Source of the DNA: a plasmid
Reading direction: 5' to 3' (one strand)
Sequence record: NZ_CP118990.1
Length of the DNA stretch: 64,000 bases
A program made the translations under genes and the position numbers. Position 1 is the first letter of the stretch. The number at the start of each line of letters is the position of its first letter. A model generated the notes under the pieces. The model was not told the origin of the DNA. It did no database searches and saw nothing but the letters and a program-made list of their open reading frames with translations. This document shows positions 12,521 through 39,654 of the stretch, one piece after another.

Positions 12521-12614
12521 TGCTATGTGCCATCTGGCATTTTTAAACCCCACACCGGGGGCGTACTCCCGGTTATCGGGTGTTGCCCCTGTAATACCTT
12601 TCAGGAGTAACACC

Positions 12615-12977
12615 ATGCACATCATCACTTTCATTGCTGTTCTGTTCGTCGCTCTGGGTATGCTTTTCATCGGCGCGAAGGTCTTTGCACTTTCGTTTGT
12701 TGCCCTTGCCAAGCTGTTTCAGCGCGTCGGCTTGTTCCTCTGGAACAAGCTCCCAGTCGCTTCGATTGGTTTGTTCCTCAAGAACAAACTTGTCGAGCCA
12801 GCAATGCGGTCTTTGAAGGCCGTCATAACAAAGAACGTAGCCAAAGCCCGCAAGCCCAAAGCTACTGTTGTGTTTGAACCGCAAGCATTTAATGTTCCGC
12901 GTATTGATTTCGAGCTGGCCTATCCGGATCTCGATGTCCCTGCGTACTTGCGTAAGGGTACCAATATCGTCTGGTAA
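12615..12977 (+). CDS. Small membrane protein
   Basis: CAGGAG RBS; two predicted TM helices; preceded by module core and a GC hairpin. Confidence 0.45.
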   Translation: MHIITFIAVLFVALGMLFIGAKVFALSFVALAKLFQRVGLFLWNKLPVASIGLFLKNKLVEPAMRSLKAVITKNVAKARKPKATVVFEPQAFNVPRIDFELAYPDLDVPAYLRKGTNIVW

Positions 12978-13062
12978 CCTCGGTCGTCACTGACTGTTTT
13001 AACCCATCGGGGCAACTCTCCCCGCTGGGGATGTTGCCCCTTTTAACTCCAGGAGCAACATC

Positions 13063-13155
13063 ATGGAAATCGCTATCATCGCTACATGTATCCCTCCCGC
13101 CTGGTTCATCTCTCGCCCGCTGGTGAAGATTGCTGAGTGGTTTGGCTACCGCTGA
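13063..13155 (+). CDS. Possible 30-aa peptide
   Basis: CAGGAG RBS and ATG directly after an AACCC-GGGG/CCCC hairpin; short, so low confidence. Confidence 0.25.
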   Translation: MEIAIIATCIPPAWFISRPLVKIAEWFGYR

Positions 13156-13268
13156 TAGTTAATACAAAGAGAGAGGGTCACCTCTCTCTTTGGTCAAGCC
13201 TCTGTGGCTTGTCTTTAAAGCCCGCTGCATGAGCTGGCTTTGACGACAAGCTACAGGGGGAATGTCGA

Positions 13269-13448
13269 ATGCAACAACACGTATACGACGATAACAAGGG
13301 CGTCATCTACCTTGCCGACGGGCGCGAAGTTAGGTTTGACTCGACACTCTATTCCAGCGCAGAACTGGCGCATAGCGAAGCGGAGAGATGGGCCAAATTA
13401 ACGGGCGTCATCGGCCAGGACGACGATGTGATGATGTTCGTCCATTAA
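13269..13448 (+). CDS. Small hypothetical protein (59 aa)
   Basis: RBS-like AGGGGGA upstream; followed by strong hairpin ggtggcctc-acaaa-gaggccacc. Confidence 0.35.
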   Translation: MQQHVYDDNKGVIYLADGREVRFDSTLYSSAELAHSEAERWAKLTGVIGQDDDVMMFVH

Positions 13449-13516
13449 TAGGTGGCCTCACAAAGAGGCCACCTCTAACTTGAAGCAAGTCTGCTCACTC
13501 ATGGCTCGGTCATCAG

Positions 13517-13600
13517 TCAGTAGATTTTGTTCTCTTCGGAGAGCGAAAAAGTGCGATAGCTGGTCGCCAAAAACAAACAGCAAACGAACGTTTTTTTTCT
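13517..13600 (+). promoter_or_regulatory. B-type copy of the conserved promoter-like module
   Basis: agattttgttctcttcggagagcgaaaaagtgcgatagctggtcgccaaaaacaaacagcaaacgaacgttttttt; near-identical copies at 17794 and 31180. Confidence 0.55.
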
Positions 13601-13666
13601 AACCCATCCGGGTGCATCCTCCCGGTTCGGGAATAGATGCGCCTGCCATTTATAAGGAACGCATCT

Positions 13667-14635
13667 ATGTCTCAATACGCTCAATACTCAGTAAGCAAGG
13701 TCTTCGGTATGCCAAGCATCCCGGAAAAGGTTTTGGCTGTTGGCTATGCCGATACCACTAACCCGTTCATCCCTGCTACTGATCCCAACTACGTTTTCCG
13801 CAAAGAGTTTCTGCGAGAGGTTTTGGCCTTCCTCAAAGAACCTGGCGGTGACGGGTTGTTCACTACGGGCCCTACCGGGTCAGGTAAAACCTCTGGGATC
13901 ACTGAAATCGCGGGTCGTCTGAATTGGCCTGTACAGCAAATCACTGCCCATGGGCGGATGGAGCTGTGCGACCTGATCGGACATCACGCGCTGATTGCAG
14001 CTAACCCCGGTGAACCCCCTGTCATGAAGTTCATGTATGGACCGCTGGCAGTTGCCATGCGTGAAGGTCATATCCTCCTCATCAACGAGGTGGATCTGGC
14101 TGATCCTGCCGAACTGGCTGGTCTCAATGACGTCCTTGAAGGTCGTCCTCTGGTGATCGCTCAGAACGGTGGTGAAATCATCAAGCCGCACCCGATGTTT
14201 CGTGTGGCTGTTACCGGCAACTCTACTGGTTCCGGTGATGCTTCTGGTTTGTACCAGGGCGTGATGATGCAGAATATCGCCTCAATGGATCGCTATCGTT
14301 TCATCAAGGTGGGATATGCCGAAGATATTGCTGAACTCAGCATTCTTGGACGTGTCACTCCCAACCTGCCGGAGAACATCCGAAGTGGAATGGTGCGTAT
14401 CGCCAACCAGGTGCGCAAGCTGTTCCTCGGTGAGAACGGTGAAGATGGTCAGCTCAGCATTACCATGTCCACTCGGACGTTGGTGCGCTGGGCCAAGCTC
14501 TCTCTCGCCTTCCGTGGTGCCCCTAACGCTCTTGAGTACGCCTTGGATCAAGCTCTGCTTATCCGGGCCGCGAAAGAGGAACGTGAAGCTGTCCTGCGCA
14601 TTGCGAAGGATGTGTTTGGCGAACAGTGGCGCTAA
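13667..14635 (+). CDS. MoxR/CobS-like AAA+ ATPase
   Basis: Walker A GPTGSGKTS; Walker B ILLINEVD; sensor motifs; CobS-like proteins of this size occur in SXT/R391 ICEs and phages, paired with a VWA (CobT-like) protein. Confidence 0.75.
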   Translation: MSQYAQYSVSKVFGMPSIPEKVLAVGYADTTNPFIPATDPNYVFRKEFLREVLAFLKEPGGDGLFTTGPTGSGKTSGITEIAGRLNWPVQQITAHGRMELCDLIGHHALIAANPGEPPVMKFMYGPLAVAMREGHILLINEVDLADPAELAGLNDVLEGRPLVIAQNGGEIIKPHPMFRVAVTGNSTGSGDASGLYQGVMMQNIASMDRYRFIKVGYAEDIAELSILGRVTPNLPENIRSGMVRIANQVRKLFLGENGEDGQLSITMSTRTLVRWAKLSLAFRGAPNALEYALDQALLIRAAKEEREAVLRIAKDVFGEQWR

Positions 14636-14648
14636 GGGGAGGGCGGAT

Positions 14649-15545: not shown

Positions 15546-15650
15546 CCTTCGGAAGGGAGCTTTTCCCTTCCAAGTTACTTGTAATTAACCCTTCGGGGGC
15601 ACTACTGCCCCGAGGGGCATGGTGTCCCCCAATCACATTGGAGATACACC

Positions 15651-16655
15651 ATGTCTGAAACTAATTCCTTGGTTGTCCGTATGGCTTCCCGCTTCGGAGT
15701 CGATGGCGATAAGTTCTATGCAACGTTGAAAGCAACGGCATTCAAGCAGCGTGATGGCAGTGAGCCGACACATGAGCAGATGCTGGCGCTCATGGTTGTT
15801 GCGGAACAATACAACCTCAACCCCTTTACTCGGGAAATCTATGCGTTTCCTGACAAGCAGAATAAGGGGATTGTTCCGGTTGTTGGCGTTGATGGCTGGA
15901 GCCGTATCATCAATGACCACCCTCAGTATGATGGCGTCGAGTTCGTCTATACGGACAAAATGGTCAAAATGCCGGGGGCAAATGTCGAGTGCCCTGAGTG
16001 GATTGAGTGCGTGATTTACCGTAAGGACAGATCTCGCCCCACCCGCATCAAGGAGTTTCTCGATGAGGTCTATCGTCCGCCGTTTCAGGGGGATGGTGAG
16101 TATGGTGCGTACACAGTTAACGGTCCCTGGCAGACTCACACCAAGCGTCAACTCCGTCATAAAGTGTTGATTCAGTGTGCTCGGGTCGCGTTAGGTTTCT
16201 CTGGTATCTACGACCAGGATGAAGCCGAACGCATTCGCGAGATGGAGCAAGCTACGGCGATCAATCCCGCTGTAGCCAATCTTCCATCACCGGAAACCGT
16301 AAGTCAGATCGTGCCAGAGCCGGTTCAGGAAGTTGTGCTCATTGAGCACAAAGAAATGGACCCCATGCTGACCAAACTCGTTGGCCGCGCCATTAAAGGC
16401 AATGCCTGGTCTGCGGCACACGAGTATGTTGAAGAGCGATACAAAGGTACTCAGTTGGCGTATGCAGTTCACTACCTTCGTGAGAAGCAGATGGACCACA
16501 TGCCCCCCGCTGATGCCGACTACCAGGACATGCAAGGGCCGGTCATTGAACATGATCAGGCAGGTGCAGCACCGGTAGTTCAGGAATCCAATTCCCAACC
16601 ATCAAGTAAAGTGGAGGAGCCTCCCGTGATGGAAGAGGAAGTATGGTACGAGTAA
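15651..16655 (+). CDS. bet: Bet, RecT/Red-beta family single-strand annealing protein
   Basis: N-terminal region resembles lambda Bet / SXT-Bet (S065); acidic C-terminal tail; directly followed by exo. Confidence 0.75.
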   Translation: MSETNSLVVRMASRFGVDGDKFYATLKATAFKQRDGSEPTHEQMLALMVVAEQYNLNPFTREIYAFPDKQNKGIVPVVGVDGWSRIINDHPQYDGVEFVYTDKMVKMPGANVECPEWIECVIYRKDRSRPTRIKEFLDEVYRPPFQGDGEYGAYTVNGPWQTHTKRQLRHKVLIQCARVALGFSGIYDQDEAERIREMEQATAINPAVANLPSPETVSQIVPEPVQEVVLIEHKEMDPMLTKLVGRAIKGNAWSAAHEYVEERYKGTQLAYAVHYLREKQMDHMPPADADYQDMQGPVIEHDQAGAAPVVQESNSQPSSKVEEPPVMEEEVWYE

Positions 16656-16722
16656 TAAACCCCACCGGGGGGCTTCCCCCCTGTTGGGGGGATCTCCCTC
16701 CTAACCACTGGAGAGGTCCGTC

Positions 16723-17733
16723 ATGAAAATAGTCAACCTGTCGCAGCGCGAGGAGGATTGGCTTGCATGGCGGCGTCGAGGCATAACCGCCACCGACGCC
16801 GCTATCTTGCTCAATCGTTCTCCGTACAAAACCCGATGGAGACTGTGGGCCGAGAAGACCGGATATGCGCGAGAAGTCGATCTGAGTCTCAATCCTTTGG
16901 TTCGCCGAGGGGTTGCGAATGAAGATTTGGCAAGGCGAGCTTTCGAGGAGAAGCATGATGACATGCTGCTCCCGGTTTGTGTCGAATCGGTACAATATCC
17001 CCTCATCCGTGCTTCGTTGGATGGATTGAGGGATTGCGGTGAGCCGGTCGAGCTGAAATGCCCGAGCGCGACTGTCTGGCAAGACGTTTGTCTTGAGAAA
17101 GCAAACAGCAACGCATACAGGCTTTACTACCCGCAGGTGCAACATCAGCTCCTGGCTACGGGTGCAAAGCAAGGGTGGCTAGTCTTCTACTTTGAAGGCC
17201 TGATCCTGGAGTTCCCCATACTCCGTGATGAAGCCATGATTCAAGAAATCTTGGCTGAGGCACAGCGGTTCTGGCAGCAGGTGGTGGACAAGAAGGAGCC
17301 CGAAAAAGATCCGGAGAAAGACCTCTTTATACCGCAAGGTAAAGAGGTTAACGCATGGATCGCTGCGGCTGAGGAGTACCGTCTTTATGATGCAGAGGCT
17401 CAGGAGCTGAAACAGCGCTTGGCCGAGTTGCAAGAGAGGCAGAAACCTCACCTCGACACCATGAAGGCCCTCATGGGGCAATACTTCCATGCCGACTACT
17501 GTGGCGTGATGGTGACAAGGTACAAAGCGGCAGGTAGGGTGGACTACAAGAAGCTGTTGGCTGACAAGGCTGCGGGTGTTAAGCCCGAAGACATCGACCA
17601 GTACAGAGAAAACTCATCAGAGCGGTGCCGAGTGACGGTAACTGGCTCGGTGAAACCACGGTACATTGTGGATGATAGGGTCTTGGCCCCTCTCCAAAAT
17701 CTATCGGAAGAAGTAACGTCAAGTTGGTGGTAA
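16723..17733 (+). CDS. exo: Exo, YqaJ/lambda-Exo-like alkaline exonuclease
   Basis: N-terminal WLAWRRRGITATDAAILL...SPYKT motif typical of the YqaJ/lambda exonuclease family; partner of bet as in SXT (S066). Confidence 0.7.
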   Translation: MKIVNLSQREEDWLAWRRRGITATDAAILLNRSPYKTRWRLWAEKTGYAREVDLSLNPLVRRGVANEDLARRAFEEKHDDMLLPVCVESVQYPLIRASLDGLRDCGEPVELKCPSATVWQDVCLEKANSNAYRLYYPQVQHQLLATGAKQGWLVFYFEGLILEFPILRDEAMIQEILAEAQRFWQQVVDKKEPEKDPEKDLFIPQGKEVNAWIAAAEEYRLYDAEAQELKQRLAELQERQKPHLDTMKALMGQYFHADYCGVMVTRYKAAGRVDYKKLLADKAAGVKPEDIDQYRENSSERCRVTVTGSVKPRYIVDDRVLAPLQNLSEEVTSSWW

Positions 17734-17793: not shown

Positions 17794-17872
17794 GCAGATT
17801 TTGTTCTCTTCGGAGAGCGAAAAAGTGCGATAGCTGGTCGCCAAAAACAAACAGCAAACGAACGTTTTTTTC
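17794..17872 (+). promoter_or_regulatory. B-type copy of the conserved promoter-like module
   Basis: Near-identical to 13517-13600. Confidence 0.55.
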
Positions 17873-17936
17873 TAGCCCAACCGGGCGCATCCGCCCGGTA
17901 TGGGACGTGATGCGCCTCAAAAATATGGAGTGCATC

Positions 17937-19130
17937 ATGACTAAAGTGAACCACCTGAATCGCCTGTGCATCATTCACGTTGACTTCGACATCTGGAGCG
18001 GCCAGACCCGTTTGACCGCTGCGGACTTGAAGTTGGGAGTGGGCGGAGAAATCCCCCCCGAGAAGATTGCACTGCTCGGTAGTAAAAAAATCTGTGATCC
18101 GGCGAAGCTGAAAGGCTTCCATCGTCTGAAAACAGAAACTCGCCGTCTCCTGCTGAAATTCGGTATGCCGTTCATGAACGGTTTTGCCGTGCCGGTAGAG
18201 AAGGTCGATGAAATTACTGGAAAGCTCGATGATGTGGGCAGCCAGTTCAATGCTCTAAAACAAGACTTCATCAGGGGCTATAACATGGCTGTTGATGAGT
18301 GGTGTCTGGAGAACCCTGAATACGAAGGTGCTCTTCGCGCTGGCGCTCTCCCTAAGGAGACTGTCGAGAAGCGGATTGCCTTCGAATACCAGGCATTCAT
18401 GATCGTGGCCGATAGCGATAAAGGCCATGCAATGAAGCTCAACCGCAAGGTCGAGTGTCTCGGGGATGACCTCATTACCGAAGTTACCCAGGAAGCCAAT
18501 AAGTTCTACATGGAGCGTCTGGCGGGCCGTGATCAATGTGCTCTCACGACACGACAAACACTCCGGAACATCCGCGATAAAGTGGATGGGCTGAGCTTCC
18601 TGAACAGCGCGTTTACCCCACTGGTTAAGCTGCTCGATCAAACCCTCCGGGGTTACGATCAACATGCAGAGGGGCGAAATGTCGTTGCACCTTTCTTCTA
18701 CCAGGTTGTGGCCGCAGTGCTGATCATGAGCGATAAGGGGCGTATCGAACAATACGCCAACGGTTCGCTCACCGTGGAAGGGATGGCCGAGGGTGTGGTT
18801 GGTGCTGAGCTCGTTGCAAGCGCCGATCAGACGCCGCTCCATCAAAGTAATGCACAGCCTGCTGCACCTATTGCTCCCGAAATCGGGAACACCAATGCGC
18901 AAGCTGCTGAGGTGCTGGTTGATGAGGCTGACATCGATGCCTTCTTCAACAACTATGTAGAAAATCATGATGCTGGTGGTCAGAAAGAGGAGAAGACCGA
19001 GGCTGCACCGGTAGTACCGGACGTGGCTAAGGAACCTCTGGAAACCCCAGTGGAAAATGTAGTGGTGAATCAAACTCCCGTAGTTGAGACGCCACCGAAA
19101 GACGACGGCGTAAACGATCTTTACTTCTAA
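17937..19130 (+). CDS. Hypothetical protein with acidic/Pro-rich C-terminal tail
   Basis: ATGGAG RBS; the ORF-track start at 17724 runs through the module and hairpin and is rejected. Confidence 0.5.
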   Translation: MTKVNHLNRLCIIHVDFDIWSGQTRLTAADLKLGVGGEIPPEKIALLGSKKICDPAKLKGFHRLKTETRRLLLKFGMPFMNGFAVPVEKVDEITGKLDDVGSQFNALKQDFIRGYNMAVDEWCLENPEYEGALRAGALPKETVEKRIAFEYQAFMIVADSDKGHAMKLNRKVECLGDDLITEVTQEANKFYMERLAGRDQCALTTRQTLRNIRDKVDGLSFLNSAFTPLVKLLDQTLRGYDQHAEGRNVVAPFFYQVVAAVLIMSDKGRIEQYANGSLTVEGMAEGVVGAELVASADQTPLHQSNAQPAAPIAPEIGNTNAQAAEVLVDEADIDAFFNNYVENHDAGGQKEEKTEAAPVVPDVAKEPLETPVENVVVNQTPVVETPPKDDGVNDLYF

Positions 19131-19211
19131 GCGCCTCGTTCAATAAACCTACCCGGAGGGGATAGCCACCCTCCGGGATGGACTATCTCCTTCTCTACCT
19201 GGAGAAACGAT

Positions 19212-21008
19212 ATGTCCAAGAAAAGAACCATCTATAGCGCCTTGCCTATCGTGGCAGCTGCTTATGGAGAGAAGCTCGGTGTCAAAGTGGCGATCGGTAA
19301 CGATACCGCTTACACCGACGGAAAAACCATCGTGGTACCGAATATCCCTGACGATTATCCGAACATGGATGCCGTCTGGGGGTATTTGGCTCATGAGGCT
19401 GCCCACGTCCGTTTTACGGATTTTGGCGTGCATCGCCGTAAAGGCCTTCATGCTGAGCTGTCCAACATCCTGGAGGACTGCCGCATCGAACGGGCCATGA
19501 TGGATCTCTTCCCCGGTACCGCGCAAACCCTGAACGAAGTGGCTCGTTATATGGCGCAAGCAGGCCATTATGAGCATGTTACGGATGACGAGGCCCCGGC
19601 CTCGATCCTGACAGGGTTTTGCCTCTACTGGTTGCAAACCAAGGCTGTGGGCCAAACAGTCCTGCAACCCTACCTCGATTCGGCAACCACCGTTATCGGG
19701 CGAGTGTTCCCTCAAGGTGTCGTTGTGCGGCTCAACGCTTTGCTGCGTAAAGCCGTGAATACGAAATCCACCGCTGAGGTTATTTCCTTGACCGACGAGA
19801 TCATCAAAATGATTGAGGAGGAGAAGGAGAAAGAAGAGCAAAAATCCCAGAATGGTCAGGGTGATCAAAATCAGCAAAATGCAGGTGGCGAGCAACCTCA
19901 GAACAATCCGGGCGGGAGTGGGCAGGATCAAAATCAAAGCGCAGGTGGCAATGGTGGCGATCAGCAAGGCAAAGACCAGAAGCAAGAAGGGGCTGGTGGT
20001 CAGTCTGATCCGAAAGGACAAGGCGACCAAGGCTCATCGAATGCCGATGGGAGCACTCAGGCAGGACAGCAATCTGCTGGTGGTGATAATGGCACGTCCA
20101 AACAGGACGCGGCCAAGTTGCTCCAACAGGTTCTTAATGCCGGTGCAGGTGATTTGCGTGGTGACGCGCATGATGCACTGAAAGCTGAGCTCAACCAGGT
20201 GGCACAGGAGCAGGGCAACAGCAGCTATACGACTGTTCGCACTGCCAGTGACACTCACAACAACCCCATCGCAGGTAAAAGCCTGATTGGGAATGTAAAG
20301 AGCACCACGGCCAAGATCAGAACGCAGCTCTACGGCCTGGTACAAGCCAGCCAGCGAGTTGCTCATCGCACTCAGCGTTCAGGGAAGCGTGTTGACGCAC
20401 GGAAGCTACATCGCGTAGTTACCGGCGACACCCGCGTCTTCCTCAAACCGGAAGACAAGAAACGCCCGAACACGGCGGTTCACATCCTAGTTGATATGAG
20501 CTCGTCTATGTCCTATCGGGCAGCCAATGGGAAGGAGCGTCAGGACATCGCACGGGAAGCATCCCTCGCCATTGCTATGGCGCTGGAGGCGATCCCCGGA
20601 GTGAATCCGGCCGTTACCTTCTTTGGTGGCGACGATAATCAACCGGTGTTCAGTGCTGTGAAACATGGAGAGACTGTTCAGAATCGGGCCGGTCGGTTCG
20701 GGTTCAAAGCGAGAGGTAATACCCCGATGGCGGAAGCCATTTGGTATGCTGCCTTTGAACTCACTAAGACCCGTGAAGAACGAAAGATGTTGATCGTAGT
20801 GACAGATGGGGCACCTCAAAATGCCCCGGCCTGTAGCTCTGTCATCAACCTCTGTGAACGCAGTGATGTTGAAGTAATCGGCATTGGAGTTGAGACCAAC
20901 GCGGTAACAAGACTGTTCCCAACGAACATTGTCATTGATGACGCGGCGGCTCTCCAGCGCACGTTGTTCAAGTTGCTTGAGCGGTCCCTGACCTCTTTCG
21001 CGGCTTGA
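19212..21008 (+). CDS. CobT-like von Willebrand factor A (VWA) domain protein with Gln/Gly-rich low-complexity linker
   Basis: MIDAS motif DMSSSMS (DxSxS) at the start of a C-terminal VWA domain; repetitive QNGQGDQNQQNAGG... linker at ~19830-20110; partner of the AAA ATPase at 13667. Confidence 0.7.
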   Translation: MSKKRTIYSALPIVAAAYGEKLGVKVAIGNDTAYTDGKTIVVPNIPDDYPNMDAVWGYLAHEAAHVRFTDFGVHRRKGLHAELSNILEDCRIERAMMDLFPGTAQTLNEVARYMAQAGHYEHVTDDEAPASILTGFCLYWLQTKAVGQTVLQPYLDSATTVIGRVFPQGVVVRLNALLRKAVNTKSTAEVISLTDEIIKMIEEEKEKEEQKSQNGQGDQNQQNAGGEQPQNNPGGSGQDQNQSAGGNGGDQQGKDQKQEGAGGQSDPKGQGDQGSSNADGSTQAGQQSAGGDNGTSKQDAAKLLQQVLNAGAGDLRGDAHDALKAELNQVAQEQGNSSYTTVRTASDTHNNPIAGKSLIGNVKSTTAKIRTQLYGLVQASQRVAHRTQRSGKRVDARKLHRVVTGDTRVFLKPEDKKRPNTAVHILVDMSSSMSYRAANGKERQDIAREASLAIAMALEAIPGVNPAVTFFGGDDNQPVFSAVKHGETVQNRAGRFGFKARGNTPMAEAIWYAAFELTKTREERKMLIVVTDGAPQNAPACSSVINLCERSDVEVIGIGVETNAVTRLFPTNIVIDDAAALQRTLFKLLERSLTSFAA

Positions 21009-21113
21009 TTGAGCATAAAGCGGCTACCCCTGGGTAGCCGCCAGTTTTTGAACCCATCGGGGGCTGAGTTCCCCTAATGGGGATGAAGCCTCAATGTTTT
21101 TGAGGAAATCATC

Positions 21114-21314
21114 ATGGAAAACACCACAACCATCACGACCACGAAAGGCTACACACTGAAAGTGCTTCGTGAGGGTTTGTACTACCAATGCACACATCTG
21201 AATGGCGTCGAGTTGACGCCAGACTATCAAGATGTACTGGTACTGAAAACCGACGCTTCCTTCCTCTGCGGGGCGGCATACACCCCAGCAAACTGGGCCG
21301 GTGTGAAAGTGTAG
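21114..21314 (+). CDS. Small hypothetical protein
   Basis: GAGGAA RBS; preceded by AACCC hairpin. Confidence 0.4.
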   Translation: MENTTTITTTKGYTLKVLREGLYYQCTHLNGVELTPDYQDVLVLKTDASFLCGAAYTPANWAGVKV

Positions 21315-30720: not shown

Positions 30721-31089
30721 ATGGGATTACCCGATTCGTATACCCTGACGGAAACGCTGGATAAGCTGCGTTATGTGCTGACAGAGACCCGCAGAACCGG
30801 CGCCCTTGAGTTGTTGGATAAAGCCGTAAGCAAGTCTCGCGAAGACGACGCTTATGCCAAGCAACTGGAAGTGGCGTTGCTGCGCGGTTCAACGTTGGAG
30901 TGCCGGGAGTTGTTCGCGGTGTTTGGTGATTACATCGCCCCACCAAGAGAGACTTTCCCCCCGTATCCACATATGGATGCAGTCAACGGGATAGACTCTG
31001 GCATGTTGGCGGTGAAACTCGAAGGTCAGACGCCAGGTGCAATGCAAGAGAGCATCGATTTCGTCAAGCTGATGAGAGGTATCGCCTGA
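30721..31089 (+). CDS. Hypothetical protein
   Basis: AAGGAAGAG RBS; preceded by long perfect GGAACATGCCCC/GGGCCATGTTCC hairpin. Confidence 0.45.
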   Translation: MGLPDSYTLTETLDKLRYVLTETRRTGALELLDKAVSKSREDDAYAKQLEVALLRGSTLECRELFAVFGDYIAPPRETFPPYPHMDAVNGIDSGMLAVKLEGQTPGAMQESIDFVKLMRGIA

Positions 31090-31258: not shown

Positions 31259-31320
31259 ATTAACCCACTGGGGGAACGTGCCCCTGATGGGGCCGTTCCT
31301 TCTCCTACCGGAGAAGAACG

Positions 31321-32388: not shown

Positions 32389-32470
32389 GTGTCGTTGAAA
32401 CAAAACCCTCACCGGGGTGCTTACCCGGAAGGGGAGGGCACCCTGCTTATTGATAATCAGGAGGCCCTCT

Positions 32471-34921
32471 ATGCAACATTCACTGAACTTTGACGTACCG
32501 GCACAACCTCACCCAGTCCTTCTTCGGGGGGACAAGTGGGATTCGGTATGGTCAACACTGGCGGATAACGAGGATCTGAACTTCGTGGACGCGAGTCGAG
32601 GTACCAGTCTTGCATCGTTGATCACCTCGTCCGTAGAAGCGATTCATACCGCTTTACTGGACGGCTGGACAATGATGGTAGGGTACTCTAGTGGCAAAGA
32701 CTCTGAAACGGTGTTGCACTTGTTCCTGATGGCCCTTATCCGGGCTGTTCGGACAGGACAAACCATCAGTCAGCACCACTTTATTCTTCATACTGACACG
32801 CTAATCGAGAGCCCAGAGGTTCGCTGGTTGGCGGATATGAAACTGGCTGCCCTGGAACGCTTCATCGCGAAGGAGAACCTTCCGTTGACTATCGTTCTGG
32901 CAAAGCCAGGGATCACTCAAAGTTGGACTGGCCGCATCTTAACTGGGCGCGGATTGCCAACTTTTTCCAACAGTAGCGCCAGGCAGTGTAGTGCTGATTT
33001 GAAAATTTCGTCTGCCAAAAGGGCCAAGGCAGCCTACATGCGAGACCTTCCCAAGGAGGTGCGTGAGAGGGTTTGCCTGATGCTCGGTAGTCGTGATGCT
33101 GAGAGCAGCATTCGTGCGGCCAACATTGCCAAACAGCAAGGAAACTCCACTCGTGTCGTAAAGACAAAGGAGGGAGGTGAGTTGTATGTGGTGAAGCAAT
33201 GGCTGGCAAGCGACGTGTGGGAGTTGCTACTGTCCTCAGGAATGGGGGCGGCTTACCCTTTGCCAAGTTACTTGGAGAGCAACACCGAAACGGCGGAACT
33301 CTACAAGGCGGCGACAGGGGAATGTGTCTGGTCGGCCAATGATAAGAAGAAAAGCGACGCCTGTGGCGCCCGCTTTGGTTGTTGGGCCTGCCAGGCTGTT
33401 GGGTTAGACAAGTCGATGGAGACCCTACTCGCCACCGATCCTGAAAAACACAACTACATGAAGGGCCTGAATAGCATCCAGCGGTACCTTGCTAAGCGGC
33501 GTTACGCCTGGGAGGATCGTCATCCGGTCGGGAGAACGATCTATGCGGGCGGGTACATCAAAATTCAGCCAGACGTCTACCACCCCAAGTTCATCGAGAG
33601 GTTGCTCCATGTTTGTTGCAGCATGGACTTTATAGAGCAGCAGAGAGCCGAAAAGCAGGCTGATATGCTGGCTATGGGCCTGATCGAGGATAACGAGTGG
33701 AATCGTCGTATGGCTGAACCGCAGTTCCGGATCGTGTCGGAACAAGCGTTGGTGCACATCGACTTTATGTGGTCGTTCCATCACTTCAACGACAAACCGT
33801 TCCGGGCCCTGGAGATTTATCACAGGGTCTGGTCCTTTGGTGAGTTGGATTTGTTGGAGGATGAAGCTGAGTGTGAAACCTTTCCCCAGACGCCGATCCC
33901 CAAGCCCCTGTGGCTAAAGGTGGCCCGTTGGGGAGATGGCTCGCTCTCTGACGGCCTGGCCGATCCTATGGCGGAAATGACCTACTTTGACGGTGGCGAT
34001 GACCCAGCAGCAGTGCGGGTAATCAATACCGCGGACGGGAAAAGGCGGGTTGTTTGTTTCGCAGAAGATGACGAGGTGACGGTCGATCCGGATTCCGCCG
34101 CGTTCATTATCTGGGAGGAGTACCCGCGATTGCGTGAATCTGTACTGGCAGGACAATACACCCCCGGCAGTGCAGCGCAGTTCTACCTCAGGTTTGGAGT
34201 AATCCAGCTTGCGAAGGGGAAGGGCGCTCTGTATCACAGAATGATGCAGCGCGGCCAGACCTACCATCAAATGGGCCTCACCGGGTACCAGACGATGGAA
34301 GGCCTCCAGCAGCGCAAGGATGTCAAGGTGCTCAGCGATGCTAAGTACCGGGATCTGGTGAAACGAAAAATCAAAGGGAAACTGGCAACGGTGCGCTGGT
34401 GGCTGAATCTGGATCTCGCGTTCAGATACCACCTCCACCACAAAACGCCGATAGGCCTGTTCATCCAGGCTCGTCTTGATGCGGAAGCTCAGGCGGAGGC
34501 ACAGCAGCACCAAGCTCGTTGGTTTAACAACGTATCCGGTGCAATGCTTGGCTACTCCAGTGCTTTTGGCATGAGTGTCATGGAAGGGAGGGAAGGTGCC
34601 GGTAATACGGACATCCGTCGCTACATGATCGCCACACGAAGGAAGGCCTATAAGGCTCTCAACGAGCTTCTGGAACATGCTGGCATTGATTGGGCTGGCA
34701 AGGTTATCCATGAGCTTGTGAAAGAGTATGAAGGCATCCTGGCTGCGCTTAACGAGGGTTCAGCGTTAGCGCTGAGTCTGGACTGGTTGAATTTACTGTC
34801 AAAGCGTCATCCTGAGGCTCTGCATCGGCATGTCAGAACGATGATCAAGGCAATCCATCGCCAAGAGCATCTGCATGGTAAGCCGCACAGGGGACAGGTT
34901 GGCCTGTCTTTGGCCGCATAA
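32471..34921 (+). CDS. Large PAPS-reductase/PP-loop family protein (~816 aa), DndC/DUF3440-like
   Basis: PP-loop-like motif MVGYSSGKDSE (SGGxDS family) near the N-terminus; Cys cluster CGARFGCWAC; CAGGAGG RBS; followed by a strong terminator. Confidence 0.55.
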   Translation: MQHSLNFDVPAQPHPVLLRGDKWDSVWSTLADNEDLNFVDASRGTSLASLITSSVEAIHTALLDGWTMMVGYSSGKDSETVLHLFLMALIRAVRTGQTISQHHFILHTDTLIESPEVRWLADMKLAALERFIAKENLPLTIVLAKPGITQSWTGRILTGRGLPTFSNSSARQCSADLKISSAKRAKAAYMRDLPKEVRERVCLMLGSRDAESSIRAANIAKQQGNSTRVVKTKEGGELYVVKQWLASDVWELLLSSGMGAAYPLPSYLESNTETAELYKAATGECVWSANDKKKSDACGARFGCWACQAVGLDKSMETLLATDPEKHNYMKGLNSIQRYLAKRRYAWEDRHPVGRTIYAGGYIKIQPDVYHPKFIERLLHVCCSMDFIEQQRAEKQADMLAMGLIEDNEWNRRMAEPQFRIVSEQALVHIDFMWSFHHFNDKPFRALEIYHRVWSFGELDLLEDEAECETFPQTPIPKPLWLKVARWGDGSLSDGLADPMAEMTYFDGGDDPAAVRVINTADGKRRVVCFAEDDEVTVDPDSAAFIIWEEYPRLRESVLAGQYTPGSAAQFYLRFGVIQLAKGKGALYHRMMQRGQTYHQMGLTGYQTMEGLQQRKDVKVLSDAKYRDLVKRKIKGKLATVRWWLNLDLAFRYHLHHKTPIGLFIQARLDAEAQAEAQQHQARWFNNVSGAMLGYSSAFGMSVMEGREGAGNTDIRRYMIATRRKAYKALNELLEHAGIDWAGKVIHELVKEYEGILAALNEGSALALSLDWLNLLSKRHPEALHRHVRTMIKAIHRQEHLHGKPHRGQVGLSLAA

Positions 34922-34925
34922 CATG

Positions 34926-35324: not shown

Positions 35325-35447
35325 CTGCTTGGCACCTCTCTAGCAAAATGCCGTGAGAGCACCAACCCACCTATCTCACTTTTACCCACCGGGTACATCA
35401 TGCCCCGGTCGGGCTTGGCGTACCTCCAACATCCAATTGGAGTCAAT

Positions 35448-35735
35448 ATGTCCGATATAGCCACACGCAGCCCTGGTCCTGGCTACCTCAAAATTAAGGA
35501 TTTTGGTTGTGACAAGCTCTTTCAATCTGTCGATGAGCTCAAAGGCGTATTGTCTGAACAGTACAAAGGCAAACACGTCACCATCGTTTACCCGTTGAAA
35601 AGCGGGATTCATAGAATGCTACTCGTCAGCATCAACGCAGAAGGTTGCGTCAATGAGACCTATGGGCAACAGAGGCCGATCGACTTCGCTGCTATCAACG
35701 CTGAACGTCAACTTGCAGAGGTGGTACTCGTATGA
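35448..35735 (+). CDS. Hypothetical protein
   Basis: TGGAGT RBS; preceded by AACCC-type hairpin. Confidence 0.4.
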   Translation: MSDIATRSPGPGYLKIKDFGCDKLFQSVDELKGVLSEQYKGKHVTIVYPLKSGIHRMLLVSINAEGCVNETYGQQRPIDFAAINAERQLAEVVLV

Positions 35736-35950: not shown

Positions 35951-36020
35951 TCCATTAACCCCACCGGGGACATCCGTCCCCGAGGGGAGGGTGTCTCCCA
36001 CTGAAAATCAGGAGATACCT

Positions 36021-36866
36021 ATGATTAAGCAACATTTTCAAAATGAACTGGTCAAGCACGGCTACCCCGCAGATCTGACTATCGAATACAGTCTGGGATA
36101 CTGTCAGGGAGATGGCATGGCCTTCTACGGAAGCCTGGGTGTTGATGACGTTCAGGCACTGATGAAGCGTTTGTTCGGTACCGAGCAGGGCTCAGCCGAT
36201 GCAGTTCGCCGAGTGAAGAACCTGATGGCGCAAAAGGACATCGATCACATGATTAATGTTCTTCGCGATTACGGTAACTGTGACCTATCTATAACTCGAA
36301 ACAGCTTCGGTCAGCATTACAGTCACTGGAATACGATGAGAATCGATAGCAACGTGGACTTCACCGGGGTTTTCCCTGATGAAGAGACCATGCTGGGAAC
36401 TGGCATTGAGGGTATCAACCCTGAGATGTTGGAACGCTGGCAAGGTATCTGGGATCGCTTCATTGACGCGCTCCAGGACGACGTAAAGAGCTTATCCAAG
36501 AGGCTTGAAGCTGATGGATATAAGCTGATCGAAGCTACCCCGTATGAAGAGACAGTTGTTTGGCAACGAACTACTGAAAGCTACCAGGTACGTGTCATCG
36601 AGCTCCCTGAACACGAGTTTGACATGGATGACTGGGATGCAGATTGTCGAGACCAGACCATTCGCGATCTCCTGGATGGGAGTCAGCGAGTGCTGGGCCT
36701 ACGTGTTGAGGTTCGTGATCATGATGGCGATTACATCTTGGCTGACAACAGCATGTATGGTCTGACCCTATCCATCGATGATAAGAAGTACGATGGATAC
36801 AGACGTGAGATGCTCCGGGATGTGATAACGCAGGTCAGATTACTTAACGACCTTAAAGCGGCATGA
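36021..36866 (+). CDS. Hypothetical protein (281 aa)
   Basis: AGGAGATA RBS. Confidence 0.5.
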   Translation: MIKQHFQNELVKHGYPADLTIEYSLGYCQGDGMAFYGSLGVDDVQALMKRLFGTEQGSADAVRRVKNLMAQKDIDHMINVLRDYGNCDLSITRNSFGQHYSHWNTMRIDSNVDFTGVFPDEETMLGTGIEGINPEMLERWQGIWDRFIDALQDDVKSLSKRLEADGYKLIEATPYEETVVWQRTTESYQVRVIELPEHEFDMDDWDADCRDQTIRDLLDGSQRVLGLRVEVRDHDGDYILADNSMYGLTLSIDDKKYDGYRREMLRDVITQVRLLNDLKAA

Positions 36867-36870
36867 TGAA

Positions 36871-37006
36871 GGCAGGGGGAAACCCCCTGCTTTCCAGGTG
36901 GCATAAAATTTCACATGTGAAATTTTTGTGTTACTCGGAAAGCAAGATTTTGCTCTCTGCTGAGAGTAAATCGTGAGATAGCTGGTCTCCCAAAACAAAC
37001 AGCAAT
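36871..37006 (+). promoter_or_regulatory. Full A-type copy of the conserved module
   Basis: See 22076. Confidence 0.65.
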
Positions 37007-37076
37007 TTTATTAACCCCTGCGGGTACATCATCCCGCTCGGGATCGGTGTACCCACCACAAAATGGAGTACACCTT

Positions 37077-37457
37077 ATGAACAAAGTTATTTTGGACCCT
37101 ACCCACATCCGTCAACAAGCTATCGATGATGAGCTGCTGGTGGACCATTCAGCGTTAGCTGAAAAAGCTGGTTTCCTAACTGGTGTGGCCGTCACTAAGG
37201 CGGTCTACCTCGGTGTTATCGGACTCAGCAGTAAAAACGTAGACGACCATCAGCTTCTGTTTTTGCAAGTCTGTTCAGCACAAACAAAGGTTGCGCTCAC
37301 CGACTACAAGCAGTGGCAGCGGATACGCTTTTACTACCCCATACCAACTTCTGACGGATTTTTCATTCCGAAGGAAGTGGTCATTAAATGCGATGTTAAT
37401 CACTCATTCGTCACGATCATGTTGGCCTCGGAAGAGGGCACTCAACTGTTTCTGTGA
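37077..37457 (+). CDS. Hypothetical protein
   Basis: ATGGAG RBS. Confidence 0.45.
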   Translation: MNKVILDPTHIRQQAIDDELLVDHSALAEKAGFLTGVAVTKAVYLGVIGLSSKNVDDHQLLFLQVCSAQTKVALTDYKQWQRIRFYYPIPTSDGFFIPKEVVIKCDVNHSFVTIMLASEEGTQLFL

Positions 37458-37629
37458 TGATCCTAATCGGCCTCCCTTCGGGGGCTGATTTTTAAACCCC
37501 TGCCGGGGAGAGCTCCCCGGTTGGGGTGCCTCCTTGGCGTATCTGCCCGGTGTCGGGGTTTCCTTAAACCCCTTGCAACGGGGGGATTAAGGAAGCCTCG
37601 ATGCCGGGGTTATCGCTAAGGAGAAACCT

Positions 37630-39321
37630 ATGTCTTATTACAAAGCTGATACCGTTCGTAATGCAGCAGTCGGAAATTGGTTGTTCATCCTGGCGGCCCT
37701 GGCGCCCCATCTTGAACCCTCGCTCCGTAAGCCAGGTCGTCATGTTAGTTGCCCAATTCATGGGGGGCGTGATGGCTTTCGGTTGTTCAAAGATGTCCAT
37801 CAAACAGGAGGCGGTGTATGTAACACATGCGGTGCTTTCCATGATGGTTTTGAGCTGCTGATGTGGGTCAACAATCTTGACTTTAAGCAGTGTCTGATTG
37901 AAGTAGGTGAGTACCTGGGTGTCGAGAAAGAAGATAACCAGACTCAACAGCCGTCGGTGAAACCAGCGCAAGTTCCTGTACAGGCAAGTCCTGTTCAGCA
38001 AGGACCTGTAATGGTGAATAACAAACTTCGCGAGGGTAAACCTCACAAGGTTGTCAGCGGCACTCTTATTGCTCACGGCCAAGCGCCGTTTGACCATAAA
38101 GAGGAGAACGAGCTCAATTACTTCGCAGTGCTCCGTACCAAGTCCAATCATGAGCGGACTTGTTGGGGAGTGGATCTTGAGCGGGCCATTAGTGAATGTG
38201 GTGTTGAACTGGGCGAAGACATCATCATGACAAACCTCGGGCGCGAGCCTGTCACTGTCCTCATCCAAGTCAAGGATGAACAGGGGAATGTCGTGAAGGA
38301 ACAACCCATGCAAACCCACCGTAACACCTGGGTGGTAGAACGCAGTAATGCGACGGTGACAGCGCTTCGCGCTCGCTCAAACGGCGGTGTAGAACCTGTA
38401 GTCGGAAGTGAAGTGGCCATGTCTGTGGCCGCAGAACAACCGGTCGTGCCGGAAGCCCCAGCTGCAATAACCAACCAGAAGGTTGTTCCGATGTTCCGTG
38501 AACAACCGAAACCCTGGTTACTCGAACTTCAAGAGGAAATGGCGAAGCGTATGGAGCGTGAACGCGCCTACAGCGCTCGTCTTCGCGAGAAGATTGAGAA
38601 AATCTGGGAGGGGTGTGTTCCATATTCCTGCCGGATTACTGAGCCAATGAGGCTCTACCTCCAAAGCCGTGAACTCGTGTTCAACGTGGATGAGGTAGAG
38701 AAATCAGACTGCTTGCGGTTCCATCCAGAAATGGCCTACTACGACGAAGATGGCAATGAGGTCGGGAAGTTCCCGGCCATCGTTTGCGCCATCCGAGACG
38801 TTGACGGTAATTTGGTTACGCTCCACCGTACCTACCTGAGCAAAAGCGGTAAAAAGGCCAAGGTAGTTAACGCCAAAAAGATGATGCCAATTCCCGATGG
38901 ATTGGATGTCAATGGCGCGGCGGTGAGACTGGGTGAACCGACAGAAGGGATTCTGGGTCTGGCCGAAGGGCTCGAAACAGCGCTCTCGGCTTATCGAGTG
39001 ACTCAGATACCCGTCTGGTCAACGGTGAACGCAACCCTGATGGAGTCTGTCGAGATTCCGGCCGGTGTGCACACCGTCTTGATCTGGGCTGATAAAGACA
39101 AGTCGGTAACCGGCGAGAAGTCAGCAAACGTGCTGAAAGCCAAGCTGGAAAAGCTGGGCATTCAGGTTTACGTGCTGCTGCCTAAACTCCCGATCCCGGC
39201 AAAGGCGAAAGGCGTTGACTGGAATGACGTTCTGATGAGCCAGGGGACTCTCGGTTTCCCGAATGCTCGCTATCTGCGCGATTTTATTGCCAGAAGGAGA
39301 GCTGAATATGGCCGTTCTTAA
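37630..39321 (+). CDS. DNA primase: N-terminal zinc-binding (CHC2/P4-alpha-like) domain plus C-terminal Toprim domain
   Basis: Zn motif HVSCPIHGGRDGFRLF...GGGVCNTCG; Toprim motifs LAEGLETALS (catalytic Glu) and VLIWADKDKS (DxD); TAAGGAGAAA RBS. Confidence 0.65.
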   Translation: MSYYKADTVRNAAVGNWLFILAALAPHLEPSLRKPGRHVSCPIHGGRDGFRLFKDVHQTGGGVCNTCGAFHDGFELLMWVNNLDFKQCLIEVGEYLGVEKEDNQTQQPSVKPAQVPVQASPVQQGPVMVNNKLREGKPHKVVSGTLIAHGQAPFDHKEENELNYFAVLRTKSNHERTCWGVDLERAISECGVELGEDIIMTNLGREPVTVLIQVKDEQGNVVKEQPMQTHRNTWVVERSNATVTALRARSNGGVEPVVGSEVAMSVAAEQPVVPEAPAAITNQKVVPMFREQPKPWLLELQEEMAKRMERERAYSARLREKIEKIWEGCVPYSCRITEPMRLYLQSRELVFNVDEVEKSDCLRFHPEMAYYDEDGNEVGKFPAIVCAIRDVDGNLVTLHRTYLSKSGKKAKVVNAKKMMPIPDGLDVNGAAVRLGEPTEGILGLAEGLETALSAYRVTQIPVWSTVNATLMESVEIPAGVHTVLIWADKDKSVTGEKSANVLKAKLEKLGIQVYVLLPKLPIPAKAKGVDWNDVLMSQGTLGFPNARYLRDFIARRRAEYGRS

Positions 39322-39586
39322 TGCTGCGAAAGTTAACACTACGCCTGGCAATGACGCTGTGTGCCCCTTCTCACCCCCTTTGGGGTGGGAAGGTGACTCG
39401 GCGGCCTATATGGTATTGATGCGTTCTCGGTACACCGACTTGATGCACGGGCAGCGAATGTTGTTCATCAGCTCCTTCTCCAGAAGAGGGAACCTGGTGG
39501 AGATAGTCGGACCCTATGCAGAAGAGGCAACCAGGATCATTGAAGCCATGCACAACAAGCCAAAGGCCCTCAAGGCCTCGGCTTAA
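39308..39586 (+). CDS. Small hypothetical protein translationally coupled to the primase
   Basis: ATG overlaps the last codons of the primase. Confidence 0.4.
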   Translation: MAVLNAAKVNTTPGNDAVCPFSPPLGWEGDSAAYMVLMRSRYTDLMHGQRMLFISSFSRRGNLVEIVGPYAEEATRIIEAMHNKPKALKASA

Positions 39587-39654
39587 TTTTTAAACCCTTA
39601 GGGGGGCAAAGACCCCTGAGGGGGTCATGCGCCCTCCAATTTTTGGAGAGAATG

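Follow-up and report, generated by a model that had tools for sequence, protein, structure and literature searches.

Why should a conjugative plasmid carry a GC-rich hairpin before most genes of one long gene cluster, and at what level do these hairpins act? The question is raised by a 64,000-nt stretch of the plasmid record NZ_CP118990.1 (hereafter the window), which sequence comparison identifies as an IncA/C–pAsa4-type conjugative plasmid backbone. A sequence-only reading of the window had counted more than 25 hairpins built from alternating G and C tracts at the gene junctions between 12.5 and 39.6 kb and had suggested a role for them at the RNA level. The analysis described here indicates that these elements are probably cis-acting translational attenuators with a conserved ON alternative, as judged from modelled folds, covariation and their register with the downstream start codon.

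The elements are numerous and confined to one strand of one region. A strict pattern (A[AG]CCC..GGG..CCC..GGG..CC, searched on both strands) matched 23 times on the plus strand and never on the minus strand, with all matches within 12546–39593. Without the AA requirement there were 27 matches in 12.5–39.7 kb, against a mean of 0.43 and a maximum of 3 in 200 dinucleotide-preserving shuffles, and 22 typical copies folded with a mean z-score of −4.1 (range −2.1 to −5.9). A covariance model, R1, was seeded only with the leaders of the AAA-ATPase gene, the DUF3150 gene and the gene behind the copy at 27211, together with their orthologues, and was run with filters off. Over the window it returned 25 matches at E≤0.011, all on the plus strand and all within 12.5–39.7 kb, while no match below E=1 was found in the tra region (1–12.5 kb) or past 40 kb. 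Five weaker variants (37493, 32402, 21049, 24375 and 19143) scored between 0.023 and 0.71. In total, roughly 30 of the 37 genes of the stretch have a copy; the remaining genes mostly overlap their upstream neighbour. The earlier count of hairpins thus stands, as does the expectation that they are more stable than shuffled controls. (T)AACCC, which had been said to precede each hairpin, does so in 23 of about 30 copies, the others carrying variants: ACGCC at 27211, TACCC at 35383, AACCT at 30184, TAGCCC at 24381 and CCCTAACCA at 23431. Pattern and alignment comparison agree that the inner segments differ at every site, and beyond (A)ACCC, the G/C tracts and the Shine-Dalgarno (SD) sequence no position is invariant, either among 93 aligned copies or in a list of invariant columns from 22 copies.

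The register of the elements points to the start of translation. Every one of the 25 R1 matches stops at ATG+2, two bases into the start codon of a gene, and this register, together with the gene-strand orientation, bears out the fixed position before each gene and the RNA-level role that had been claimed. The hairpins had also been placed between the upstream stop codon and the next ribosome-binding site (RBS). This does not hold, as the 3′ arm pairs with the RBS and with bases up to or into the start codon. Most copies are intercistronic, as had been stated; seven (12546, 13601, 17874, 22220, 26454, 31262 and 37013) instead lie in 5′ leaders, some 30–45 nt past a repeated leader module.

Each element is composed of six alternating tracts: C0 (the CCC of AACCC), G1+x, C2, G3, x′+C4, and G5 (the SD, GGAG), after which x″ extends to the AUG. 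The part upstream of the SD hairpin measures about 45 nt. RNAfold was run on 31 junctions, each as the 5′ untranslated region (UTR) through the start codon and as a prefix ending before the SD. In the full-length minimum free energy (MFE) fold, state B (−22 to −43 kcal/mol), a hairpin HP1 (C0:G3 closing G1:C2) adjoins a second hairpin HP2 (x′+C4 : SD+x″), so that both SD and AUG are paired. HP2 takes up the SD and bases up to or into the AUG at most of the 31 junctions, and at about a quarter of them the SD instead lies within a small hairpin of its own. The prefix folds into state A, a single long hairpin (G1+x : x′+C4 and C2:G3) that leaves AACCC and the SD/AUG single-stranded. In these models the 3′ arm is an anti-SD, which makes translation control the primary reading in place of the processing, antitermination or cruciform roles put forward earlier. 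G1+x in turn copies each gene's own SD region (for instance GGGGCAAC against GGAGCAAC at 13001) and, on the modelled folds, is an anti-anti-SD. This mimicry explains why the inner segments differ from site to site, and pairing of C0 with G3 explains the presence of AACCC. At the copy 12998–13065, for example, GATGTTGCCCC pairs with either GGGGCAAC or GGAGCAACATC. Mutually exclusive pairings had been noticed at 17873 and 27215; they prove to be general and conserved across copies.

Comparison of arms and of orthologues argues that both folds are under selection. When arms were swapped between window sites, cognate 5′-arm/3′-arm pairs averaged −22.4 kcal/mol against −15.7 for non-cognate ones, and cognate 3′-arm/SD tails −11.8 against −7.4; in neither case was any of 20,000 permutations as good. 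Compensatory changes are visible directly in orthologues (GATGCG:CGCATC to GGTGCG:CGCACC, GTTC:GAAC to GCTC:GAGC, and CCC:GGG to CCTA:TAGG). A sequence-based MAFFT alignment of 28 orthologues and paralogues had 78% of cells paired in state B (controls with slid columns, 28–55%) and 85% in state A (30–52%), with 33 double-change cells against 16.7±2.7 in shuffles and 32 against 13.5±3.0, respectively (each 0/500). In a second alignment, 93 copies from 12 elements were fitted to the state-B model without use of state A. State A nevertheless had 82% of cells paired (slid controls 49–63%) and 92 double-change cells against 35.6±5.9 (0/500); state B had 78% paired and 162 double-change cells against 78.6±7.0. 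Within this alignment, column 59 covaries with column 19 (AU 24, GC 23, GU 18) and also with column 125 (UA 29, CG 20). Covariation of one 3′-arm column with two partners is, at the level of alignment, the signature of mutually exclusive pairings under selection. The shuffled controls ignore phylogeny, while the slid controls retain it and score much lower. A MAFFT alignment of paralogous copies for pair counting left HP2 out of register, with 48% of cells paired, and was superseded.

The same structure recurs well outside the window. The sequence-only reading had named folding, a covariance model and the orthologous junctions of related elements as checks, and these yielded compensatory changes for both folds, the structure being kept by such changes in pAsa4b, pAhD4-1, IncA and IncC plasmids, SXT/R391 integrative and conjugative elements (ICEs) and distant elements. 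In pAsa4b, pAhD4-1 and two IncA plasmids the pattern matched 19–23 times on the gene strand against once on the other. Loci around exo homologues, taken from one genome per species, gave 179 model matches at E≤0.01 in 35 related loci, with 178 of the 179 on the gene strand. Their hosts include Vibrio, Shewanella, Edwardsiella, Marinomonas, Halomonas, Pseudomonas, Methylomonas, Chromatiaceae, Comamonas (Betaproteobacteria) and Pseudovibrio (Alphaproteobacteria), and the carriers include SXT/R391-type ICEs as well as many uncharacterised relatives. The structure at the exo junction is retained in exo loci down to 43–46% protein identity. IncC plasmid pVCR94 has 17 model matches in 36 kb, and its ssb gene, which neighbours the host-defence-evasion locus, has a copy too.

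One member of the family has experimental support. Published work describes a strong translational attenuator ahead of bet in SXT that is "also present" in IncA/C plasmids (Garriss 2013, as cited in PMC4542580); it is reported there to strongly hinder translation of a highly transcribed operon, with the remark on the IncA/C counterpart that "Functionality remains to be investigated". In the SXT bet UTR the AACCC-HP1-HP2 anatomy recurs with an anti-SD:SD hairpin, the sequence reading TTTAACCCAG(C/T)CGGGAGTACTTTCCCGTCAGGGGCAGACTCCC...GGAGTCCA(C/T)AATG across ICE copies. R1, built without bet sequences, matches the SXT-type bet UTR of locus L025, which has T at both variable positions, at 5832–5899 with E=0.0086; the bet copy of the window scores E=3.1e-9. 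Because the SXT bet UTR shares the anatomy and is recognised by the model, the published attenuator is one member of the element family. As a second precedent, Roy et al. (2020; PMC7498323, Suppl. Fig. S2) mention a structure at vcrx089 of pVCR94 that is predicted to sequester the RBS, and the window copy 13598–13669 is orthologous to it.

In energetic terms, HP2 is worth about −13 kcal/mol (state B minus HP1), and state B lies about 7 kcal/mol below state A. Hairpins of about this stability at an RBS cut initiation by orders of magnitude; for the MS2 coat gene, De Smit and van Duin reportedly saw about ten-fold less translation for every −1.4 kcal/mol of RBS hairpin stability. Opening positions −14 to +3 costs 8.8 kcal/mol in element genes against 6.0 in other genes of the window (p=0.0045), which is below the energy of HP2 because the RNA can relax into state A. 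Direct-path barriers computed with findpath are about 14 kcal/mol from A to B and about 21 from B to A, values that are upper bounds for nested paths. Mean opening energy falls from 10.4 kcal/mol at 25 °C to 8.1 at 37 °C and 7.2 at 42 °C; with such a gradual fall and no melting transition, an RNA thermometer of the ROSE or fourU type was rejected.

In the mechanism proposed for the attenuators, state B would be translationally silent, its RBS buried by HP2, and expression would come from the fraction of transcripts that reaches state A. Operons dependent on AcaCD or SetCD would then be highly transcribed yet weakly translated by way of state B, as measured for SXT bet. Since HP1 is made first and nested refolding barriers are high, a toehold role is posited for x: displayed in the HP1 loop of state B, it could capture x′ along pseudoknotted paths, which fall outside nested-fold modelling. 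In one version x would capture x′ before the SD emerges, a kinetic partitioning with the C4-to-SD spacer as its timer; in another, capture would follow the opening of HP2 by a first ribosome and act as a latch, with state A persisting for minutes or longer. C0 would set how firmly the OFF state is locked. Neither a ligand nor a leader peptide would be required, and a trans-acting factor could take part. A broader proposal, tentative but possible, is a modular, evolvable RNA latch system in which each of some 30 establishment and anti-defence genes of IncA/C, SXT/R391 and many related conjugative elements would yield protein solely from transcripts escaping to the metastable ON fold, either through the HP1-loop toehold or through one factor that acts on AACCC/HP1 and unlocks all copies. 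If so, a hidden post-transcriptional layer would lie over the host-defence-evasion genes of resistance plasmids after transfer.

Several points weigh against a two-state switch of this kind. State A may rarely form, as HP1 is transcribed first and the nested-path barrier from HP1 to state A is about 19 kcal/mol. The covariation of x with x′ would also fit a loop-to-tail pseudoknot with HP1 intact. The contrast in opening energy is modest, and the start codons of the control genes are unconfirmed calls. Experimental support for attenuation comes from the SXT bet copy only. The copies at 29683, 35075 and 37493–37632 are atypical, and the AA before CCC (often TAA or TAG) is conserved while pairing in neither fold. 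Finally, the two strands fold equally well (MFE −31.5 kcal/mol sense, −31.2 antisense), so energetics alone do not prove action at the RNA level; that argument rests on orientation and on the involvement of SD and AUG. Asymmetry in G·U pairs, tried as evidence for the RNA strand, failed on the same equality.

Some of these points would be met if the attenuators were static, with HP2 setting a low, gene-specific rate in the manner of natural tunable intergenic regions, state A never populated, and the complementarity between loop and anti-SD reflecting a pseudoknot or a different constraint. At most sites the MFE fold of the full-length UTR is state B, HP1 forms first with nested barriers to state A of about 19–21 kcal/mol, and the only published effect, as given in PMC4542580, is attenuation. 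This account nonetheless seems unlikely: the x:x′ pairs are kept by double changes across the 93 copies in an alignment that was not fitted to them, the same 3′-arm columns covary with two partners, and HP2 at about −13 kcal/mol should by itself nearly abolish translation, yet the genes are functional (the hde genes; PMC7498323).

The unpaired AA invites another explanation, a regulon in which one RNA-binding protein of the element or the host, or a small RNA (sRNA) with a GGGUU seed, binds (U)AACCC/HP1 and switches all copies at once, for instance while the element becomes established in a new host. Conservation of (T)AACCC exceeds 90% among the IncA/C, pAsa4 and SXT copies even though neither fold pairs the AA, occupation of C0 would remove C0:G3 and bring B near A in energy, and the leader copies follow an A-rich (ARN)n-like tract. 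Distant elements, however, replace the AA (ATCCCC, GACCCC, TTGCCC), leaving CCC alone universal. A search of the window for an sRNA with a GGGUU seed gave none: TGGGTTA matches on the plus strand lie in coding sequence and those on the minus strand are the elements themselves. A Pfam search revealed no conserved RNA-binding protein among 50 window proteins, a set that a factor encoded outside the window would escape. Control in trans is on balance an improbable account of the family.

The nearness of some stop codons suggests translational coupling, whereby a ribosome ending at the upstream stop, in some cases the TAA within TAACCC, would melt C0/G1, C2:G3 would form, G1 would take C4 and the next SD would be freed. 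Translation of a gene would then depend on translation of the gene before it. The stop abuts C0 or lies within 10 nt of it at 24381, 24667, 16658, 23431, 26854, 35957 and 39593, and by reading of the sequence about 19 of 26 copies have a stop-like triplet (TAA, TAG or TGA) ahead of CCC. Yet the seven leader copies have no upstream open reading frame (ORF), the triplet by C0 and the real stop are in different frames at both junctions checked (13001 and 15587), and stop and AACCC lie 0 to about 45 nt apart, with variation among orthologues, figures that are only indicative as the automated stop finder was noisy with spurious frames. With this noisy finder and the sequence reading, neither a fixed spacing from stop to element nor an in-frame back-up stop in TAACCC was supported, and coupling is judged quite improbable. 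The same grade of doubt attaches to a role in mRNA processing or stability, in which the hairpins would protect the 3′ end of the upstream cistron or the 5′ end of the downstream one after endonucleolytic cleavage in an A/U-rich stretch ahead of AACCC, or serve as RNase III sites like those between early genes of T7, a role that could coexist with attenuation. Stable GC-rich hairpins do stand at the junctions of long polycistronic transcripts, and an A/U-rich single-stranded stretch often precedes AACCC. Processing would leave unexplained why the 3′ arm tracks the sequence from SD to AUG and why two pairings covary, and the helices, at 10–16 bp, are shorter than typical RNase III substrates.

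A DNA-level function, as cruciforms or as hairpins in the transferred single strand for priming or single-strand promoters, would suit the equal folding of both strands and the Toprim/zinc-ribbon primase encoded by the plasmid; it is very improbable given the co-orientation with genes (25:0 in the window, 178:1 in relatives), the register locked to SD and start codon, a copy number of about 30 per element that is far above known priming signals, and the location of the pVCR94 region inside mapped AcaCD transcripts. Intrinsic terminators or transcription attenuators between genes are scarcely credible, since most copies lack a T-run (a few have T-rich tails, and state A at 13001 is followed by TTTT), a plus-strand terminator scan caught only parts of two copies (21078–21093 and 31280–31293) among 26 sites in the region against 18.0±4.1 expected, and reverse transcription PCR (RT-PCR) shows co-transcription across several pVCR94 junctions (PMC7498323); the earlier statement that the hairpins are not simple terminators is upheld.

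Known classes of repeats and regulators were also considered. Repetitive extragenic palindromic (REP) elements, bacterial interspersed mosaic elements (BIMEs) and miniature inverted-repeat transposable elements (MITEs) were ruled out by the site-specific inner segments, the 25:0 and 178:1 orientation and the 3′ end locked to ATG. A riboswitch was rejected, with no invariant unpaired aptamer nucleotides in the 93 copies and no Rfam match: a scan of the window with Rfam 15 gave none at the gathering threshold, and an E-value search over 12300–40100 gave a single CsrC-terminator-like match at 40029–40067. Leader-peptide attenuation of the erm/cat type was set aside given the seven leader copies and the stop-to-C0 distances of 0 to about 45 nt.

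The attenuator reading with an ON alternative has precedents of several kinds. The SXT bet attenuator is homologous in structure and sequence and likewise has a stem-loop that pairs with the SD of the downstream gene. It was described singly at one gene, whereas here about 30 gene-specific copies share a six-tract grammar, with a conserved alternative ON fold, three-way covariation and a spread far past SXT and IncA/C. The vcrx089 structure was mentioned in passing to explain a polar deletion phenotype, with neither family nor alternative fold (PMC7498323). In ermC and cat, too, competing consecutive segments, including an upstream anti-anti-SD, decide whether the SD is sequestered; mutually exclusive pairings of this type, one of them freeing the SD, are present here and both folds covary. 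Unlike those systems, the elements show no sign of a leader peptide or of a ribosome stalled by a drug, many copies lie between cistrons and the stop spacing is not conserved. No conserved upstream ORF was noticed at the leader copies, for which no systematic search was made, and the other copies follow full-length genes. The MS2 maturation gene and hok mRNA resemble the elements in that the equilibrium fold hides the SD while a metastable fold formed during synthesis is translatable, but these are single long-range cases, whereas here a compact element of about 70 nt stands at about 30 genes and kinetic control would be the suggested mode. Intercistronic hairpins that set expression or stability are also known from synthetic tunable intergenic regions, the early RNase III sites of T7 and REP/BIME elements. 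REP elements have a conserved sequence, occur in both orientations and are not tied to an SD, and the T7 sites are RNase III substrates; the window elements, in contrast, combine variable sequence with conserved structure, one orientation and register with the start codon. The claim that such an arrangement had not been described must therefore be narrowed: a single attenuator, that of bet, was already known (PMC4542580), and the vcrx089 structure is on record (PMC7498323), while no description of a family of about 30 copies or of the two-state design was found in the literature, a provisional result as the original bet paper lay outside the coverage. The family, its scale and its two-state design appear to be new.

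The setting of the elements was traced through relatives of the plasmid. The sequence-only reading had taken the region for an ICE backbone, which is not borne out: over 12.5–22 kb, identity is 91% with the pAsa4-type plasmids of Aeromonas salmonicida, 87% with pAhD4-1 and about 81% with IncA/IncC plasmids, and this stretch matches 836 plasmid records, nearly all of them conjugative MOBH/MPF_F. The genes stand in the same order in pAsa4b, pAhD4-1, two IncA plasmids and pVCR94. Upstream of the element region, 1–12 kb encodes dsbC, traC, a signal peptidase, a trbC/traW-like gene, traU and traN; the region itself encodes an AAA_5/CbbQ_C ATPase, Bet, a YqaJ-type Exo, DUF3150, VWA/CobT-like and DUF3085 proteins, methylases, a YfaE-like ferredoxin and a Toprim primase, along with numerous small uncharacterised proteins. 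From these identities, the collinear order and the gene content, the region is the accessory backbone of an IncA/C-family plasmid, the counterpart of vcrx087–vcrx129 of pVCR94. AcaCD boxes are 29 bp long, with transcription starting 34–36 nt downstream of the box (Carraro 2014, Table S3). For vcrx087 of pVCR94 the attenuator and a repeated GATAGCTGGTC..AAAACAAACAGCA module lie inside the transcript, about 120 nt from the AcaCD start. AACCC as a transcription start or 5′-terminal hairpin was accordingly ruled out, as was a promoter role for the repeated sequence of about 80 nt upstream of the leader copies, which is transcribed and lies downstream of mapped starts. The copies of the window are collected in Table 1.

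Table 1. Predicted translational attenuators and variants in the window, with the start of the downstream gene and the covariance-model (R1) score.
Element	Coordinates	Strand	Evidence
Attenuator, 5′ leader of vcrx087-like gene (start 12615)	12545..12617	+	R1 E=0.002; two-state fold; kept in orthologues
Attenuator before 30-aa ORF (start 13063)	12998..13065	+	R1 E=1.3e-5
Attenuator, leader of AAA_5/CbbQ_C ATPase gene (vcrx089-like, start 13667)	13598..13669	+	R1 E=4.9e-16 (seed); z=−3.66; covariation
Attenuator before bet (start 15651)	15584..15653	+	R1 E=3.1e-9; z=−5.19; position orthologous to published SXT bet attenuator
Attenuator before exo (YqaJ-type, start 16723)	16656..16725	+	R1 E=0.001
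Attenuator, leader of DUF3150 gene (start 17937)	17871..17939	+	R1 E=4.6e-15 (seed)
Variant attenuator before VWA/CobT-like gene (start 19212)	19143..19214	+	R1 E=0.71; z=−3.44; HP1+HP2, SD paired; loop GAUAG complementary to CUAUC
Attenuator before 66-aa ORF (start 21114)	21049..21116	+	R1 E=0.076
Attenuator before DUF3085 gene (start 21448)	21383..21450	+	R1 E=4.9e-4; IncA orthologue CCC:GGG to CCTA:TAGG
Attenuator, leader of 179-aa gene (start 22281)	22217..22283	+	R1 E=9.8e-8
Attenuator before 164-aa gene (start 22934)	22869..22936	+	R1 E=0.0013
Variant (CCCTAACCA replacing AACCC) before DNA-methylase-like gene (start 23495)	23431..23497	+	R1 E=4.3e-7
Variant before YfaE-like ferredoxin gene (start 24444)	24375..24446	+	R1 E=0.2; IncA GTTC:GAAC to GCTC:GAGC; upstream stop TAG abuts CCC
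Attenuator before 134-aa gene (start 24729)	24664..24731	+	R1 E=0.0047; upstream stop codon is the TAA of TAACCC
Attenuator before 63-aa gene (start 25676)	25615..25678	+	R1 E=0.004
Attenuator before 117-aa gene (start 25935)	25875..25937	+	R1 E=9.3e-5
Attenuator, leader of 109-aa gene (start 26518)	26451..26520	+	R1 E=2e-5
Attenuator before 89-aa gene (start 26918)	26852..26920	+	R1 E=2.6e-5
Attenuator (ACGCC variant) before 101-aa gene (start 27274)	27207..27276	+	R1 E=3.7e-13 (seed)
Attenuator before 98-aa gene (start 27676)	27607..27678	+	R1 E=0.011
Attenuator before cytosine methyltransferase gene (start 28056)	27985..28058	+	R1 E=7.8e-5
Variant, long single hairpin and small SD hairpin, before 132-aa gene (start 30246)	30178..30248	+	R1 E=0.0014
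Attenuator before 122-aa gene (start 30721)	30657..30723	+	R1 E=6.9e-6
Attenuator, leader of 355-aa gene (start 31321)	31259..31323	+	R1 E=0.0042
Attenuator before 816-aa gene (start 32471; PAPS-reductase-like annotation in relatives)	32402..32473	+	R1 E=0.071
Variant (TACCC) before 95-aa gene (start 35448)	35379..35450	+	R1 E=2.9e-5
Attenuator before 281-aa gene (start 36021)	35954..36023	+	R1 E=9.9e-8
Attenuator, leader of 126-aa gene (start 37077)	37010..37079	+	R1 E=7.8e-10
Atypical composite before Toprim/zinc-ribbon primase gene (start 37630)	37493..37632	+	R1 partial (37493–37536), E=0.023; AACCC hairpin, then second AAACCCC structure; MFE −67 kcal/mol over 109 nt
Attenuator before 82-aa gene (start 39655)	39590..39657	+	R1 E=3.4e-7; IncA orthologue fully re-paired, CATGATT:AATCATG

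IncC/IncA plasmids and SXT/R391 ICEs rank among the main carriers of multidrug resistance, and the genes that bear the elements include the host-defence-evasion locus (the vcrx089-type ATPase, bet and exo), DNA methylases and the primase. The lone bet attenuator becomes one copy of a conserved two-state module present about 30 times per element and widespread in related elements of Gamma-, Beta- and some Alphaproteobacteria, and a single anecdote becomes a testable regulatory layer. The 179 matches in 35 loci are natural variants of one switch design, suited to studies of co-transcriptional folding and strand displacement and to an Rfam entry. The elements also offer an explanation for polar effects and expression artefacts seen when genes of these plasmids are deleted and, because they end exactly at the true start, should be useful for the annotation of start codons.

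The seven leader copies are accompanied by a second module, found on the plus strand at 12490–12517, 13555–13582, 17829–17856, 22183–22210, 26385–26412, 31215–31242 and 36977–37004, some 30–45 nt upstream of the attenuator; shuffles predict 0 matches. Its sequence is GATAGCTGGTC(T/G)CC(A/C)AAAACAA(A/G)CAGCA, in which an invariable TAGCTGG loop is closed by a covarying stem (GAGA/TCTC to GCGA/TCGC) and the A-rich (ARN)n-like tract follows. The module resembles the RfaH ops element GGCGGTAGCGTG at 8 of 11 positions, is transcribed in pVCR94 downstream of the AcaCD starts, and might be an antitermination or Hfq-type signal. The attenuators 13598–13669, 17871–17939 and 27207–27276 (+) are nearly identical inside (GGGCGCATCCGCCCGG...GTGATGCGCC), and two of them also share the 80-nt upstream leader; the shared sequences indicate that leader and attenuator modules have been duplicated between operons. 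Directly upstream of the attenuators at 21049 and 21383 stand GC-rich hairpins with T-rich tails at 21020–21046 (GCGGCTACCCCTGGGTAGCCGC+CAGTTTTTG, flagged by the terminator scan) and 21353–21381 (GCGGTTACCCCTTGGGTCACCGC+CCTTTATT, seen by sequence reading only), both on the plus strand, which may be real terminators or operon boundaries within the region.

Other features of the window lie in or beside individual genes. Among the tra genes, between the trbC/traW-like gene and traU, an EAL-domain protein of the cyclic di-GMP phosphodiesterase type is encoded at 5410–6081 (+). The cytosine-5 methyltransferase gene seems split into the ORFs 28056–29138 and 29363–29680 (+; span 28056–29680), relatives having a single gene of 1626–1632 nt; a frameshift or a pseudogene is possible. 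A mini-ORF of eight codons, ATGATCGAACCTATCCGGTACTACTGA, with its own AGGAGG occupies 22822–22860 (+), after the 179-aa gene and before the attenuator that comes next. It is probably a deletion remnant, because pAsa4b and pAhD4-1 have a full 609-nt gene at the same position. A 239-aa protein encoded at 53032–53751 (+) carries a cold-shock domain at its N-terminus (PF00313, E=2.5e-10). The protein does not belong to the backbone, shows no similarity to the 241-aa pVCR94 protein at the corresponding place, and is possibly an RNA chaperone specific to the window plasmid.

Further downstream, a CRISPR-like array at about 55895–56530 (−) consists of some 11 repeats, GTTAACCCCCGCCTGCGGGGGG(C)GA, each with a CCCCC-N6-GGGGG hairpin, separated by unique spacers of about 32–36 nt at a period of about 60; Tandem Repeats Finder missed it. 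The repeat begins with TTAACCCCC, superficially like the (T)AACCC of the attenuators, a likeness that is probably coincidental. A gene block at 47645–52744 (−), a variable region absent from the compared syntenic stretches of pAsa4b and pVCR94, holds a gene for a DinG-like helicase (DEAD/Helicase_C_2) at 49393–51342 and, at 51339–51911, a weak Cas6-like match (PF08798). As the DinG-like helicase and the weak Cas6-like match lie near the array, the block and the array together suggest a plasmid-borne type IV-like CRISPR-Cas system.

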